A stretch of DNA of 64,000 bases from NCBI RefSeq assembly GCF_003018235.1, contig NZ_CP027437.1; one strand, 5' to 3'. The number at the start of each line of letters is the position of its first letter. Positions within the stretch are counted from its first letter, which is position 1. A program made the translations under genes and the position numbers. Below, in pieces: positions 20,474 through 24,769 of this stretch. Source of the stretch: Escherichia coli. Lineage in GTDB: Bacteria > Pseudomonadota > Gammaproteobacteria > Enterobacterales > Enterobacteriaceae. The notes below the pieces were generated by a model. That model saw nothing but the letters and a program-made list of their open reading frames with translations. It was not told where the DNA came from and did no database searches.

Positions 20474-20695
20474 ATATGGTGGGTTTTTACGTTACCCCGT
20501 CATATGCTAACACTGCCGCACTTCCAGTTTATCTACGCGTTAATGGGTGCTGAAAGGATCCTGTTCTCCGTCGATTATCCCTATCAGACCCTGGACGGTG
20601 TAAAAACCTTTATAGACAGTCTGCCCGTCAACAAGGCTGAAAAAGAGGCCATCGCGTTTCGCAATGCAGAACGTTTACTGGGCATCACGGTTTAG
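20474..20695 (+). pseudogene. C-terminal remnant of an amidohydrolase-2 family gene
   Basis: Frame opens after a stop at 20471-20473; the 63-aa ORF (20504..20695) carries ...ERILFSVDYPYQ..., typical of the amidohydrolase-2 C-terminus, with no N-terminal domain upstream. Confidence 0.5.
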
Positions 20696-20845
20696 TTCAC
20701 CGTTTCATGATGACTGAGCACATTGTGATCAGCCGACAATTATTAGTTTTTGCCTAAAAGTGAATGAGCCTTTACTGCTCTAAAAAAATAATGTTGTCAC
20801 TCTATACTGGATTTAATATTCACCAAAGATGTTTAACTGATTGAA

Positions 20846-21418
20846 ATGAAAAATATCCTTGTTATTTCAGGTCATCCTGAGCTTACCCATTCCGTCGCCA
20901 ATGCCACTATTCTTGATGAAGTGGAGACCGCCCTTCCCGATGTTGAGATTCGTCGTCTGGACAGGCTCTATCCGGATGGCAAATTCAACATCGCGGCGGA
21001 GCAGAAAAGCCTGCTCAGGGCCGATGTGATTGTCTGGCAGTTCCCTTTTTCCTGGTATGGGCTGCCAGGATTAATGAAAAAATGGCTGGACGAGGTCTTT
21101 GTTCACGGCTTCGCGCATGGCTCAACGGCGAAACTGGGCGGTAAAAAGCTGATCCTCTCCTTTACAACGGGAGCGCCAGATGAGCTCTATACCGTCGACA
21201 GTTTCTTTGGCCATACCATTGAAGAGTATCTAATTCCGTTCGAGACCACAGCAAAACTGTGCAATCTTGAGCTGCTGGCGCCGGTTTATACCTGCGGTAT
21301 CAGCTATGCCGATCGGGATGCCGACAAACTCGCGCAGCAAAAAACGCTTGCCCGGGAACACGCTTCAAGGCTTGTCGATCTGCTCAATTCCGTCGTGAAT
21401 AATCCAGAGGGAGAATAA
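20846..21418 (+). CDS. Flavodoxin-like-fold NAD(P)H:quinone oxidoreductase family protein
   Basis: 190-aa ORF (MKNILVISGHPE...VIVWQFPFSWYGLPGLMKKWLDEVF...), resembling MdaB/KefF-type reductases; family-level call only. Confidence 0.75.
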   Translation: MKNILVISGHPELTHSVANATILDEVETALPDVEIRRLDRLYPDGKFNIAAEQKSLLRADVIVWQFPFSWYGLPGLMKKWLDEVFVHGFAHGSTAKLGGKKLILSFTTGAPDELYTVDSFFGHTIEEYLIPFETTAKLCNLELLAPVYTCGISYADRDADKLAQQKTLAREHASRLVDLLNSVVNNPEGE

Positions 21419-21420
21419 CA

Positions 21421-22440
21421 ATGCAGTATACCCGGCTCGGTAAAAGTGACTTACTTGTTTCCCGCATCTGCATGGGATGCATGGGGTTTGGCGATCCGTC
21501 GACGGGTCAGCATAGCTGGACGCTGGACGAAACAGCAAGCCGCGACATCATTCGCTATGGCCTTGAAAAGGGCATCAACTTTTACGATACCGCTATAGCC
21601 TACCAGAATGGCTCCAGTGAGCGATACGTTGGCCGGGCATTACGGGAGATGGCGAAACGCGATGATATCGTCCTGGCCACCAAGTTTCTGCCGCGAACCC
21701 CCGCACAAATTGCCGGAGGGATCAGCGGAAAAGAGGCAATCGCTCAATCCCTTGACCAGAGCCTGAAGAATCTGGGGATGGACTATATCGACCTCTACAT
21801 CTACCACATCTGGGATTACAACACGCCCATTATCGACGTGCTTGAAGCGTTACATACCGCTGTTAATGCTGGCAAAGTACGAGCTGTTGGTATTTCAAAC
21901 TGCTATGCCTGGCAGCTGGCGAAGGCGAACGCCCTTGCTGAACGCGAAGGGCTGACGCCCTTTGTTTCCGTACAGAGCCACTACAATCTAATTATGCGCG
22001 AAGATGAACGGGAGCTCTTCGGCCTGTGCACTGAGGATAATATCGCAATGACCCCCTATAGCGCGCTGGCCAGCGGCCGCCTCTCTCGTAAAGAAGGCTA
22101 TACACGGCGAGCCACAGAGGATGACTATGCGCGTGGAAAATATGACAGCACGGCTGAACAGGATCGCAGCATTATTGAGCGTGTAGCCGAACTGGCCGAA
22201 CGCCATCTGGTGTCAATGACGGAAATATCTCTCGCTTGGCTGCTGACAAAAGTCACATCACCTGTCGTAGGGGCTACAAAAAAAGCTCATGTCGATGGCG
22301 CGGTAAACGCAGTAAATCTTCAACTAAGTCCGGAGGAAATTCAGTTTCTGGAAGAAACCTACCAGCCGCATGTTCTGACGGGGATCATGGCGCAAAATAC
22401 GCCGCAAACGAAAGATGTTAAGCAGGTCTGGATGCGATAG
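21421..22440 (+). CDS. Aldo/keto reductase family oxidoreductase
   Basis: 339-aa ORF with AKR hallmarks (GCMGFG, YDTAIAY, LATKF); starts 3 nt after the upstream gene. Confidence 0.85.
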   Translation: MQYTRLGKSDLLVSRICMGCMGFGDPSTGQHSWTLDETASRDIIRYGLEKGINFYDTAIAYQNGSSERYVGRALREMAKRDDIVLATKFLPRTPAQIAGGISGKEAIAQSLDQSLKNLGMDYIDLYIYHIWDYNTPIIDVLEALHTAVNAGKVRAVGISNCYAWQLAKANALAEREGLTPFVSVQSHYNLIMREDERELFGLCTEDNIAMTPYSALASGRLSRKEGYTRRATEDDYARGKYDSTAEQDRSIIERVAELAERHLVSMTEISLAWLLTKVTSPVVGATKKAHVDGAVNAVNLQLSPEEIQFLEETYQPHVLTGIMAQNTPQTKDVKQVWMR

Positions 22441-22555
22441 CCCTTATTCACTTTTCCTCCTCTCGTCTTTGAGAGCGCCAGTAGCGGTCGGTTACGTTCT
22501 TACCAGCACCAGTTGATCGAACGTCTTAAACAGTAATGTCAGTAAAAAGATCATC

Positions 22556-23281: not shown

Positions 23282-23296
23282 CCAGTAAGGATTAAC

Positions 23297-24100
23297 ATGA
23301 AAAGCGTACTTGCAGCAGCGGCTATGTCGCTTGTTATTTCTGATTTTGCTAATGCTGAGGAAACAAGAGGTAAAGCTATGATGAAAATAGAACCGTCAGC
23401 GATTTCGGAAGCTGATATTCGTTCCGTCTCACCGGCTCTCGCGCGCTTTGGTCGCGAAGCTATTACTGAAGATCTGTGGACACGCGACGCCCTCTCACCG
23501 AGGGATCGTAGTGTGGTGACCGTCGCCATGCTGATTGCCCGCAACCAGCCTGCCGAGCTTAAGCACTATATTGACGTCGCTCTCGATAGCGGCGTGACGC
23601 CAGCGGAATTATCAGAAATCATTACCCATCTGGCGTTCTACTCAGGTTGGCCAAATGCAATGTCAGCCGTCAGCGTGACCAAAGCAGTATTTGAAACTCG
23701 TGGCGTCACGCCAGATGCGCTTCCTGACGCTTCTCCGGACCTGCTTCCTCTCAATCAGGAAGCAGAAAAGCAGCGTTCAGAGACAGTGGAAAAAAATGTT
23801 GGCCCAATATCTCCAGGCCTGGTTAAATTCACTGCTGATCCACTCTTCCTGGATCTATGGCAAAGACCCGCGCTGAAACCCCGCGACAGAAGCCTGATTA
23901 CGGTCAGCGCCTTAATCGCATCCGGACAGAGCGCGCAGATTGGCTATCACCTCAATAGAGCAATGGATAATGGACTTTCTGTTGAGGAAGCTGGTGAGAT
24001 CGTTACCCAGGCCGCCTTCTATGCTGGCTGGCCAAACGCATTTACCGCTGCTCCGGTTGTGGGAGAGGTGCTAAACAATCGATCATCGAGTAAAAGGTAA
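23297..24100 (+). CDS. Secreted protein with two carboxymuconolactone-decarboxylase (CMD/AhpD-like) domains
   Basis: 267-aa ORF; signal peptide (MKSVLAAAAMSLVISDFANA|EE); internal duplication (...HLAFYSGWPNAMSAV... and ...QAAFYAGWPNAFTAA...). Confidence 0.7.
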   Translation: MKSVLAAAAMSLVISDFANAEETRGKAMMKIEPSAISEADIRSVSPALARFGREAITEDLWTRDALSPRDRSVVTVAMLIARNQPAELKHYIDVALDSGVTPAELSEIITHLAFYSGWPNAMSAVSVTKAVFETRGVTPDALPDASPDLLPLNQEAEKQRSETVEKNVGPISPGLVKFTADPLFLDLWQRPALKPRDRSLITVSALIASGQSAQIGYHLNRAMDNGLSVEEAGEIVTQAAFYAGWPNAFTAAPVVGEVLNNRSSSKR

Positions 24101-24149
24101 CATTACCGAACACTAAAACTTGACGCACATCACAACATTAGAACGAACA

Positions 24150-24234
24150 GTTCATGAACCAATAAGCGTAACATCGAGTGATTTATGGACAGCGTTTAAC
24201 ACAGTTATGAACCAAAACTGAGTTCATAACTGTG
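24150..24234. promoter_or_regulatory. Palindromic motif cluster: 10-bp palindrome GTTCATGAAC and a perfect 13-bp inverted repeat with 9-bp spacer
   Basis: GTTCATGAAC at 24150-24159; CACAGTTATGAAC (24200-24212) / GTTCATAACTGTG (24222-24234). No T-tract follows, so operator-like rather than terminator-like. Confidence 0.4.
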
Positions 24235-24514
24235 AGTTTGAATCGCCATTTGATTAATATCCATTTAAAACAGTTTGTTATGCTGTTTCTGGTGCTGAAG
24301 TCAATTATGTATATCCCTCAAACCCAGAATAGTTAAATGGAATTTGAGTGATGCGAAGCGATTTTCCAGTCGTCGTTATTACTTCAGGGTTCCAGAACAT
24401 AAAGCCTCTCCTCTTTCATGATTGGCCTGTGCATACCGGATATAGGCTGGCTGGTATGCAGGTTTGCCGTTTGCCGCATCTTCCCTGCGTTGAAGAGTCA
24501 GGCTGGCAAACCGC

Positions 24515-24769
24515 GTGCAAATGAACACCCCCACTTTCCATCAACACTTCAGACAGCTTGCGGGAATGAGTCCACTCCGGTATCAGAAATGGCTACGCCT
24601 CAATGAAGCCAGGCGACTGATGCTGAATGAACATTACGATGTCACCACTGCAGCCTATGCTGTCGGTTACGAAAGCTTATCCCATTTCAGTCGGGAATAT
24701 TCGCGGATGTTTGGAGAGTCACCTAAGAGAGATATTACCGGGTTAAGAAAGTCTGTCGGTCAGCTTTAA
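24515..24769 (+). pseudogene. C-terminal fragment of an AraC/XylS-family regulator (second HTH only)
   Basis: 84-aa ORF with the AraC signature region (...GYESLSHFSREYSRMFGESPKR); no ligand-binding domain or first HTH in any upstream frame. Confidence 0.6.

Follow-up and report, generated by a model that had tools for sequence, protein, structure and literature searches.

The MdaB-YgiN pair of Escherichia coli, reportedly described by Adams and Jia in 2005, joins a NADPH:quinone reductase of the Flavodoxin_2 family to a quinol monooxygenase of the ABM family. Operons controlled by LysR-type transcriptional regulators (LTTRs) classically feature a T-N11-A site near -65 and an activation site near -35, and a poor -35 element is usual in activator-dependent promoters. 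The alt cluster of Pantoea ananatis confers TetR-regulated tolerance to thiosulfinates (PMC8417944). Filamentous phages, such as CTXphi, YpfPhi/CUS-1 and UPphi, integrate at the dif site (PMC7307601, PMC4266046). The locus compared here with these systems spans positions 20474–24769 of a 64,000-nucleotide stretch of E. coli contig NZ_CP027437.1 (the window), between hipA and the F9 fimbrial operon. The segment 20476–24338 probably corresponds to the truncated right-hand part of a horizontally acquired island of ~7.5 kb. The favoured, though by no means certain, reading of the whole is that of an orphaned right half of an LTTR-controlled oxidoreductase island located beside dif. The elements of this segment are:

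20476–20486, + strand: first 11 nt of the island (ATGGTGGGTTT), matching the flank that follows dif in strain 1190; the deletion junction comes next
20483–20695, + strand: amidohydrolase remnant, C-terminal part (ORF 20504–20695, 63 codons; homology 20483–20692)
20739–20808, + strand: putative promoter P2, featuring ATTATTA, a TTAG-N7-CTAA box (20743–20757), a CTCTAA element and the -10 hexamer TATACT (20803–20808)
20846–21418, + strand: Flavodoxin_2 NAD(P)H-dependent (quinone) oxidoreductase, 190 aa, cytoplasmic
21421–22440, + strand: aldo/keto reductase (AKR), 339 aa, starting 2 nt past the Flavodoxin_2 stop
22444–22536, + strand: scar of a second Flavodoxin_2 gene (Flav2b), last ~30 codons, detected by blastn and tblastn
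22556–23281, + strand: tandem ABM protein, 241 aa, GTG start, predicted signal peptide at residues 1–19
23297–24100, + strand: tandem CMD protein, 267 aa, no cysteine, predicted signal peptide at residues 1–20
24101–24338, + strand: 3' untranslated end of the island, ending with GTTAAAT (24332–24338)

The initial annotation had placed four intact genes between two gene remnants. Each open reading frame (ORF) that it named is present at its place in the ORF list of the window, and profile and PDB searches agree on the families of the four products. These are 77–97% identical at the amino acid level to orthologues of Enterobacter, Dickeya, Pectobacterium and Pantoea. The dN/dS values against the orthologues of these four genera range from 0.06 to 0.37–0.38 (0.13–0.24 for the Flavodoxin_2, 0.06–0.11 for the AKR, 0.19–0.38 for the ABM, and 0.06–0.09 for the CMD gene). 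Values this low between genera exclude that the genes are chance ORFs, and indicate that they are under purifying selection. The dS values to Enterobacter, Dickeya and Pantoea are just 0.2–0.7, and are therefore read as the mark of horizontal spread, assuming that the core genes of those genera diverge more. GC content and GC skew are uninformative at the scale of the block, and an Rfam scan of 19900–25300 returned sub-threshold chance matches only.

The comparison of loci in other genera bears out the proposed four-gene module: its genes, coding for redox and cofactor-free enzymes, are conserved and inherited together. One genome per species was scanned with a tandem CMD (CMD×2) alignment as query, and the 33 loci retrieved, in which CMD×2 is present by construction, were annotated by tblastn. 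All 14 Enterobacterales loci that extend far enough have an orthologous LysR gene (78–94% identity), divergent from a modular operon the last gene of which is CMD×2. In the full island the LysR gene faces a first unit made by genes for a muconolactone isomerase (MIase)-like protein, a DJ-1/Hsp31-like protein, an AKR and an amidohydrolase, followed by a second unit made by the Flavodoxin_2, AKR, ABM×2 and CMD×2 genes. Intact loci have been identified in Enterobacter, Dickeya, Pectobacterium, Pantoea, Klebsiella and Serratia. In Enterobacter bugandensis, Dickeya zeae and Serratia plymuthica the LysR gene, on the minus strand, is followed by genes for a 102-aa protein, a DJ-1/PfpI protein, a 315-aa AKR (AKR315), a 344-aa Amidohydro_2 protein, Flavodoxin_2, the 339-aa AKR (AKR339), ABM×2 and CMD×2; AKR339 is missing from the S. 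plymuthica locus, and the Pectobacterium locus has no amidohydrolase. In Pantoea the order is LysR, a 101-aa protein, Flavodoxin_2, AKR339, DUF1330, a second Flavodoxin_2, ABM×2 and CMD×2; in Klebsiella it is LysR, the 102-aa protein, Flavodoxin_2, AKR339 and CMD×2. The smallest forms consist of the LysR gene divergent from Flav2-CMD2, ABM2-CMD2 or AKR339-CMD2 pairs. In Rhizobium, Xanthomonas and Pseudomonas, CMD×2 proteins 53–67% identical to the query are encoded a few kb from related genes, coding for homologues of the 102-aa protein (60–70%), of DJ-1 (57–66%) and of the amidohydrolase (36–57%). Distances between tandem CMD and MIase-like, DJ-1 and amidohydrolase homologues measure 2–8 kb in Rhizobium, Phyllobacterium, Xanthomonas and Pseudomonas. 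Association beyond Enterobacterales hints at an old functional link.

The 102-aa protein has no Pfam match itself, and 23 of 52 members of its family match Pfam MIase. The top Foldseek matches of its AlphaFold2 model (pLDDT 96) are ClcF (a 5-chloromuconolactone isomerase), TftG (a dehydrochlorinase) and MIase, and the first gene of unit 1 may thus be viewed as muconolactone-isomerase-like. The DJ-1 protein resembles the Hsp31-type glyoxalase III of yeast. The intact amidohydrolase matches 3nur, LigW, and the 2,3-dihydroxybenzoate (2,3-DHBA), gamma-resorcylate and salicylate decarboxylases, and is assigned on these similarities to the non-oxidative hydroxybenzoate decarboxylase branch.

Within the species, a larger form of the locus is found in strain 1190 (L001), where the order is hipA, dif, LysR (minus strand), the 102-aa hypothetical protein, DJ-1/PfpI, AKR (315 aa), a defective amidohydrolase, Flavodoxin_2, AKR, ABM, CMD, a truncated helix-turn-helix (HTH) gene and fimA. 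The window is collinear with strain 1190, except that L001 2308–6000 is replaced by window 20148–20485. After the first 11 nt of the island the sequence jumps to L001 ~5997–6001, corresponding to codon ~275 of the amidohydrolase gene. A 3.7-kb deletion, starting 11 bp past dif, removed the regulator and the first half of the operon: the LysR gene, its promoter region P1, the MIase-like, DJ-1 and AKR315 genes, and most of the amidohydrolase gene were lost. The remnant of the latter encodes residues 275–342 of the intact 344-aa Enterobacter protein (91% identity by tblastn; Pfam PF04909). The gene is already a pseudogene in strain 1190, as it carries a 354-bp internal deletion and a frameshift. 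A decayed remnant of a larger locus had been correctly perceived, and the amidohydrolase is indeed lost, but the loss is not of one enzyme, as the LysR gene and four more genes are gone. A Xer-mediated origin of the deletion was rejected, because the breakpoint lies 11 nt beyond dif, and the junction features only a TTT/GTTT microhomology.

A different deletion is found in ST2747 (L002). Its left end falls inside the LysR gene, that of the window deletion at dif+11; the right-hand breakpoints (window ~20486, L002 ~6930) are within 1–3 nt of each other (…GTTTACGTTACCCC). The shared right-hand breakpoint could denote either a hot spot or a two-step history.

An older event is marked by the 115-bp spacer between the AKR and ABM genes. 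The spacer holds the last ~30 codons of Flav2b, a gene intact in Pantoea, Rahnella and E. sichuanensis, as trace of a ~1-kb deletion of the DUF1330 and Flav2b genes. Because of this scar, the E. coli island is taken to descend from a longer form. The N-terminus of Pantoea Flav2b is signal-peptide-like, suggesting a periplasmic flavodoxin-fold protein.

Among 5,426 complete E. coli genomes, 450 (~8%) carry at least 80% of 20474–24769, and most of the remaining ones match only the last 210–440 bp, which correspond to the AraC tail described below. The upstream 3.7 kb, i.e. the left half, were found in 444 of the same genomes; therefore, nearly every E. coli with the four genes has the regulator half. 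The deletion junction of the window was found in none of the complete genomes. The same allele and architecture mark at least 44 draft contigs, one of which is 100% identical over 7.2 kb. In K-12 (DH5alpha) the order past hipA is dif, an HTH pseudogene of 209 bp and the ydeT remnant. The block is thus absent from K-12, as had been noted, and a pseudogene fragment follows hipA and dif.

The divergent LysR-type gene has been identified in strain 1190, Enterobacter, Dickeya, Rahnella, Pantoea, Serratia and Klebsiella. It flanks the module in strain 1190 and 14 other species and is deleted in the window, where no LTTR orthologue was found in the 64 kb. To judge from this arrangement, the true regulator of the module is the divergent LTTR, and not an AraC protein. 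The closest named model is YafC (165 bits, cut-off 470).

A generic scan for promoters and terminators returned no more sites than shuffled sequences, and conservation across genera was used instead. The 150 bp upstream of the Flavodoxin_2 gene are more conserved in 7 genera than the flanking coding sequence. In the same number of genera the TTAG-N7-CTAA box and TATACT are invariant, and the rest of ~70 nt nearly so. The box, of the T-N11-A type, is 45 nt upstream of TATACT in P2, and its centre lies ~65 nt before the presumed start, i.e. near -65. The intergenic region facing the LysR gene (P1) features the same elements, with a spacing of 65 vs 64 nt. According to a regular-expression search of Enterobacterales loci, the composite motif occurs at P1 and P2 only, and once in single-unit loci; it was never found elsewhere in the 20-kb stretches searched. 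We infer that one LTTR would drive both P1 and P2. In the strain under analysis P2 and the four genes are intact and not yet decayed, and expression is probably at basal level because P2 has been left without its cognate LTTR.

The Flavodoxin_2 protein, a KefF/YwrO-like flavin oxidoreductase, belongs to the family by its PF02525 domain, recorded for an identical product, and matches in PDB the sequences of GSP14, KefF, NQO1 and MdaB. It scores 148 bits on the NCBIfam KefF model, under the cut-off of 210, and the gene is flanked by the AKR gene and the amidohydrolase remnant, not by kefC. The AKR has a PF00248 domain, typical of (alpha/beta)8 barrels, and full-length PDB matches (7utf, IolS, DepB), and is a member of the superfamily; the motifs FYDTAIAY, LATKF and YIYHIWD fit the Asp-Tyr-Lys-His tetrad, the equivalence being judged by eye. 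Models nearest to the four proteins in NCBIfam are KefF/KefG, YdjG/Tas/YghZ-type AKRs, LsrG and PcaC, respectively.

The ABM protein has two ferredoxin-like PF03992 domains (E = 5e-11 and 9e-10), a pair of which makes up the barrel of this family, and tandem homologues in PDB (3mcs, 3f44; E = 4e-25). It scores 53 bits on the LsrG model (cut-off 135), and differs from the single-domain, cytoplasmic LsrG and YgiN. An AAGGA/GAGGA-type Shine-Dalgarno sequence precedes the GTG start at 22556, which is kept in 6 of the 6 genera compared. Internal ATGs are missing in Pantoea, and GTG is replaced by ATG in a more distant relative. The N-terminus read from the GTG is MKKTFMLLICMLISSPVFA, with the predicted cleavage before TK, and has textbook Sec-type signal features. 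In the RefSeq/PGAP annotation the start is set at an internal ATG (22586), giving a product of 231 aa, and the export signal is probably hidden as a consequence. The corrected start predicts a periplasmic ABM, as for CMD, and changes the plausible substrates.

The CMD protein has two PF02627 domains (E = 3e-17 and 7e-17) and matches PDB 4g9q (E = 3e-73). Its N-terminus is MKSVLAAAAMSLVISDFANA, with cleavage predicted before EE. In 18 homologues this region is variable in sequence but retains a hydrophobic core and the AxA motif, while ~80% of the mature part is invariant. The conserved motif E-x3-H-x-A-x-Y-x-G-W-P is of PcaC type, and the score on the PcaC model TIGR02425 is 115 bits, lower than the cut-off of 155.7. 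Both ABM and CMD N-termini feature a conserved positive n-region, a hydrophobic core and small residues at -3/-1. From these Sec-type features the two products are predicted to be exported to the periplasm, and their earlier description as secreted has good support at the sequence level.

The role suggested by the gene content would be the inducible detoxification of quinone, carbonyl or lactone electrophiles. The LTTR would sense a small aromatic or electrophilic inducer and switch on P1 and P2. From P1 would be expressed the MIase-like protein, the DJ-1/Hsp31-like protein, an AKR and the hydroxybenzoate-decarboxylase-like amidohydrolase; from P2 the Flavodoxin_2 quinone reductase, the second AKR, sometimes DUF1330 and a second Flavodoxin_2, and the ABM and CMD proteins predicted to be exported. 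Two-electron reduction of quinones by the flavoenzyme and reduction of carbonyls by the AKR would take place in the cytoplasm. Decarboxylase, glyoxalase-III-like protein, two AKRs, quinone reductase and MIase-like tautomerase might together act on quinones, carbonyls and lactones in this compartment. In the periplasm ABM, as oxygenase or isomerase, and the cysteine-less PcaC-like CMD, as lactone isomerase or decarboxylase, may process quinol or butenolide compounds before or after these cross the membrane. Plant or fungal phenolics, quinones and unsaturated lactones are plausible targets because the hosts of the island are mainly Proteobacteria living with plants or in soil (Dickeya, Pectobacterium, Pantoea, Erwinia, Rahnella, Serratia, Rhizobium, Xanthomonas). 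It is conceivable, though doubtful, that the exported ABM and the cysteine-less CMD form a new periplasmic pair neutralising plant or fungal toxins under one LTTR and two promoters. If so, the pair would work with the cytoplasmic reductases, and the LTTR would sense the toxin through the matched promoters.

Literature searches by protein accession, by family combination and around dif, hipA and phages retrieved no study that describes the cluster or bears on this reading in either direction, in keeping with the statement that its function is uncharacterised. An auxin transcriptome of Serratia plymuthica reports the induction of a Flavodoxin_2 gene ('ywrO') and an ABM gene located five genes apart (PMC11264596). 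These genes could not be linked to the island, as neither CMD, nor amidohydrolase, nor adjacent genes are in the differential lists (PMC11264596). The block is best described as an ordinary accessory island of known enzyme families, mildly unusual for the exported ABM-CMD pair, the twin LTTR promoters and the position at dif. For this strain its meaning is modest, the block being probably a regulator-less leftover. Intact reference loci spanning several genera, the regulator and two candidate promoters are nonetheless provided for ~8% of complete E. coli genomes and for plant-associated Enterobacterales, and inducer screens and knock-outs can now be designed.

On the left, the island is bordered by phage DNA. 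Three elements were distinguished:

20130–20140, + strand: chromosomal XerC arm of dif (GGTGCGCATAA), left junction with phage DNA
20141–20447, + strand: filamentous prophage remnant, ~310 bp at dif
20448–20475, + strand: dif-like hybrid site (AGTGCGTATAAGATATATTATGTTAAAT), made by a phage-type XerC arm and an intact XerD arm

A canonical 28-bp dif directly follows hipA in strains 1190, ST2747, A37 and K-12 (L001, L002, L011, L012). The window is identical to strain 1190 and K-12 up to the XerC arm, and then diverges. An attP-like hairpin (20131–20222, 92 nt), the stem of which pairs two inverted dif-like arms, has a DNA fold of -38.1 kcal/mol (z = -8.8). Its tip (20165–20200), with a T run, resembles a terminator, and had been taken for that of hipA; the hairpin belongs instead to the prophage remnant. 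Past the hairpin, ~220 bp of further phage-end sequence are found. In strain AST240 a Zot/secretin prophage sits at the same place, and its end shares 80% identity with the stretch. Identity reaches 99.7% between window 20230–20504 and the right end of the intact prophage carried by the sibling draft GCA_012128275.1. In this draft (L051) the complete prophage spans 121–3886 (DUF2523, Zot, secretin), and the same LysR-to-amidohydrolase deletion is present. Bounds derived from dif and inovirus homology are as expected of a filamentous phage integrated in a Xer-dependent manner. A blastn search of a phage record collection with the 351-bp dif flank gave no match, and the phage origin rests on the E. 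coli prophages.

The hybrid site differs from canonical dif at 4 positions and has an altered central region (GATATA); the AST240 equivalent has 1 mismatch. Besides the XerC arm at the left junction, it is the sole dif-like candidate identified in the window. It may be the working dif of the strain, because no site within 3 mismatches of canonical dif is present in the 64 kb. Upstream of hipBA, the ECSE_1600-family autotransporter gene (14651–18202) has lost ~1.8 kb internally in comparison with ST2747 (breakpoint 18178/18179), and the ORF ends prematurely (1,183 aa); the gene measures 5,421 bp in strain 1190. The vicinity of dif is variable: within 4 kb there are traces of a phage that integrated and decayed, of an inserted island and of nested deletions.

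On the right, the island is followed by one remnant:

24476–24769, + strand: AraC-type HTH tail (ORF 24515–24769, 84 codons; homology 24476–24763), part of the E. coli backbone

The tail corresponds to residues 209–303 of a 304-aa AraC protein, and is preceded at its upstream edge by an in-frame stop. A full AraC/XylS protein has a C-terminal double HTH and an N-terminal sensing/dimerisation domain, and the latter is missing. The tail is the equivalent of K-12 yneL and O157 Z2199/ECs2114. In O157 it has been described as a cryptic AraC-like CDS that separates hipA from fmlA, a gene of the F9 fimbrial cluster (PMC7766294). In K-12 and A37, dif is directly joined to the sequence that follows 24338 in the window, and the tail is therefore assigned to the E. 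coli backbone. The GTTAAAT at 24332–24338 equals the final 7 nt of the dif XerD arm and lies at the very point at which dif and backbone are joined in K-12. Either a scar of Xer-related insertion or a repeat that served precise loss would fit. Strain G5 (L004) carries at 5354–6268, in a different island beside intS and tRNA-Arg, a full-length 304-aa AraC-family gene, the product of which is 86% identical to that of the remnant. The truncated copy next to the F9 operon may derive from this gene or be its paralogue. The G5 gene is uninformative on the redox module. The F9/Fml fimbrial operon (25155–31567) looks intact (major subunit, chaperone, 883-aa usher, ydeS, ydeR, ydeQ); K-12 lacks the first two of these and most of the usher.

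Several observations weigh against viewing the block as an orphaned half of an LTTR-controlled island. A generic sigma-70 scan does not flag P2, which has a poor -35. P2 could also respond to an LTTR encoded at another place in the genome. None of the four proteins reaches an NCBIfam equivalog cut-off, all scores being well below, and because of this substrates cannot be assigned. The four ORFs are fully intact in at least 44 assemblies, and could still be used. The last point leads to a possible, albeit less likely, alternative, according to which the remaining unit is still expressed and useful, either because P2 works without the LTTR or because the LTTR mainly represses, and the deletion is a case of streamlining. 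All four ORFs are full length and differ from those of strain 1190 by conservative substitutions only; the truncated architecture persists in the same assemblies; the independent ST2747 truncation keeps exactly the four genes and P2; variants of the LysR-Flav2-CMD2 type show that distal genes can work without unit 1. Against this stand the retention of the LTTR in every natural variant of other genera and the combination of a poor -35 with a box at -65, usual in activator-dependent LTTR promoters; the few substitutions may just reflect a recent deletion.

The remaining alternatives concern the nature of the module and its arrival. The initial annotation envisaged an AraC-regulated quinone or aromatic module, the regulator and one enzyme of which decayed in place. 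In agreement with this, the four genes have the amidohydrolase tail upstream and the AraC tail downstream, 375 bp past the CMD gene; yet no AraC gene is next to the module in the scanned intact loci of other genera, and the tail, present in truncated form in 4,288 of the 5,426 E. coli genomes with or without the block, abuts dif in K-12 and A37. The cognate regulator being the LTTR, this explanation is very improbable, and the tail cannot be regarded as the module regulator. A catabolic role had also been considered, and a fragment of a beta-ketoadipate-type pathway for growth on phenolic acids would account for the resemblance of the MIase-like protein to CatC and ClcF, the PcaC score of CMD and the similarity of the amidohydrolase to LigW and DHBA decarboxylases. 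Neither ring-cleavage dioxygenase, cycloisomerase, enol-lactone hydrolase, CoA-transferase and thiolase genes in or beside the examined loci, nor pcaB, pcaD, pcaGH and pcaIJF within them, were found. CMD falls short of the PcaC cut-off, CMD and ABM are predicted to be exported, and detoxification-type reductases dominate the gene set; a catabolic module is unlikely on these grounds, and the pathway fragment quite improbable. The CMD/AhpD superfamily includes alkylhydroperoxidases, and the neighbours of CMD are redox enzymes, as one would expect if CMD were an AhpD-like periplasmic peroxidase and the module a defence against oxidative stress. CMD has no cysteine, nor is any conserved across the 18 homologues, so that the CxxC chemistry of an AhpD-type thiol peroxidase is impossible; the conserved motif is moreover that of PcaC, and such a defence role is hardly credible. 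Finally, an integrative element may have brought the island into E. coli as its cargo, through Xer recombination at dif instead of ordinary recombination. It starts right after the XerD arm and ends with the GTTAAAT copy of the arm end, K-12-type strains join dif directly to the downstream backbone, and the site is a landing pad for filamentous phages. The right end, however, lacks a second full dif-like site, in other genera the island lies away from dif, and the 7 nt may be a chance repeat or a microhomology for island loss, which makes entry by this route improbable.

Read as an orphaned half-island, the locus shares single traits with each of the systems mentioned at the outset. CTXphi, YpfPhi/CUS-1 and UPphi resemble the flank 20130–20475, with its XerC arm, hairpin with dif-like arms and hybrid dif-like site; unlike in those phages, ~310 bp survive, and the remnant is a neighbour, not a part, of the module. 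The CMD domains share the PcaC-type motif and 115 bits on TIGR02425 with PcaC, but CMD is below the equivalog cut-off, tandem, predicted to be exported, and cysteine-free. The fold of the CatC/ClcF muconolactone isomerases recurs in the product of the first gene of unit 1; unlike in beta-ketoadipate systems, none of the other pathway genes is in the examined loci. The structural genomics entries 4g9q, 3mcs and 3f44 are full-length homologues of CMD and ABM, the folds of which are therefore known. 4g9q bears the family name '4-carboxymuconolactone decarboxylase', 3mcs and 3f44 that of 'putative monooxygenase'; as the names give no substrate, they add no mechanism. The alt cluster of Pantoea ananatis is similarly plant-associated and horizontally transferred, includes reductases and a CMD-family protein, and guards against a plant electrophile (PMC8417944). 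Regulator family and gene set are different, and alt rests on thiol chemistry, whereas CMD here has no cysteine.

As in the MdaB-YgiN pair, Flavodoxin_2 and ABM families are linked, the MdaB match having E = 1.7e-15, and the ABM gene is labelled 'putative quinol monooxygenase' in RefSeq. ABM is here a fused tandem provided with a predicted signal peptide, and would therefore not share the compartment of the Flavodoxin_2 reductase, in contrast to MdaB-YgiN. AKR and tandem CMD are added, and the island would be controlled by an LTTR from two promoters. The likeness to LTTR divergent operons is given by the TTAG-N7-CTAA box at ~-65 from TATACT, found at both P1 and P2. Unlike a classic LTTR operon, the window keeps the candidate operator and promoter, and has lost the regulator gene.

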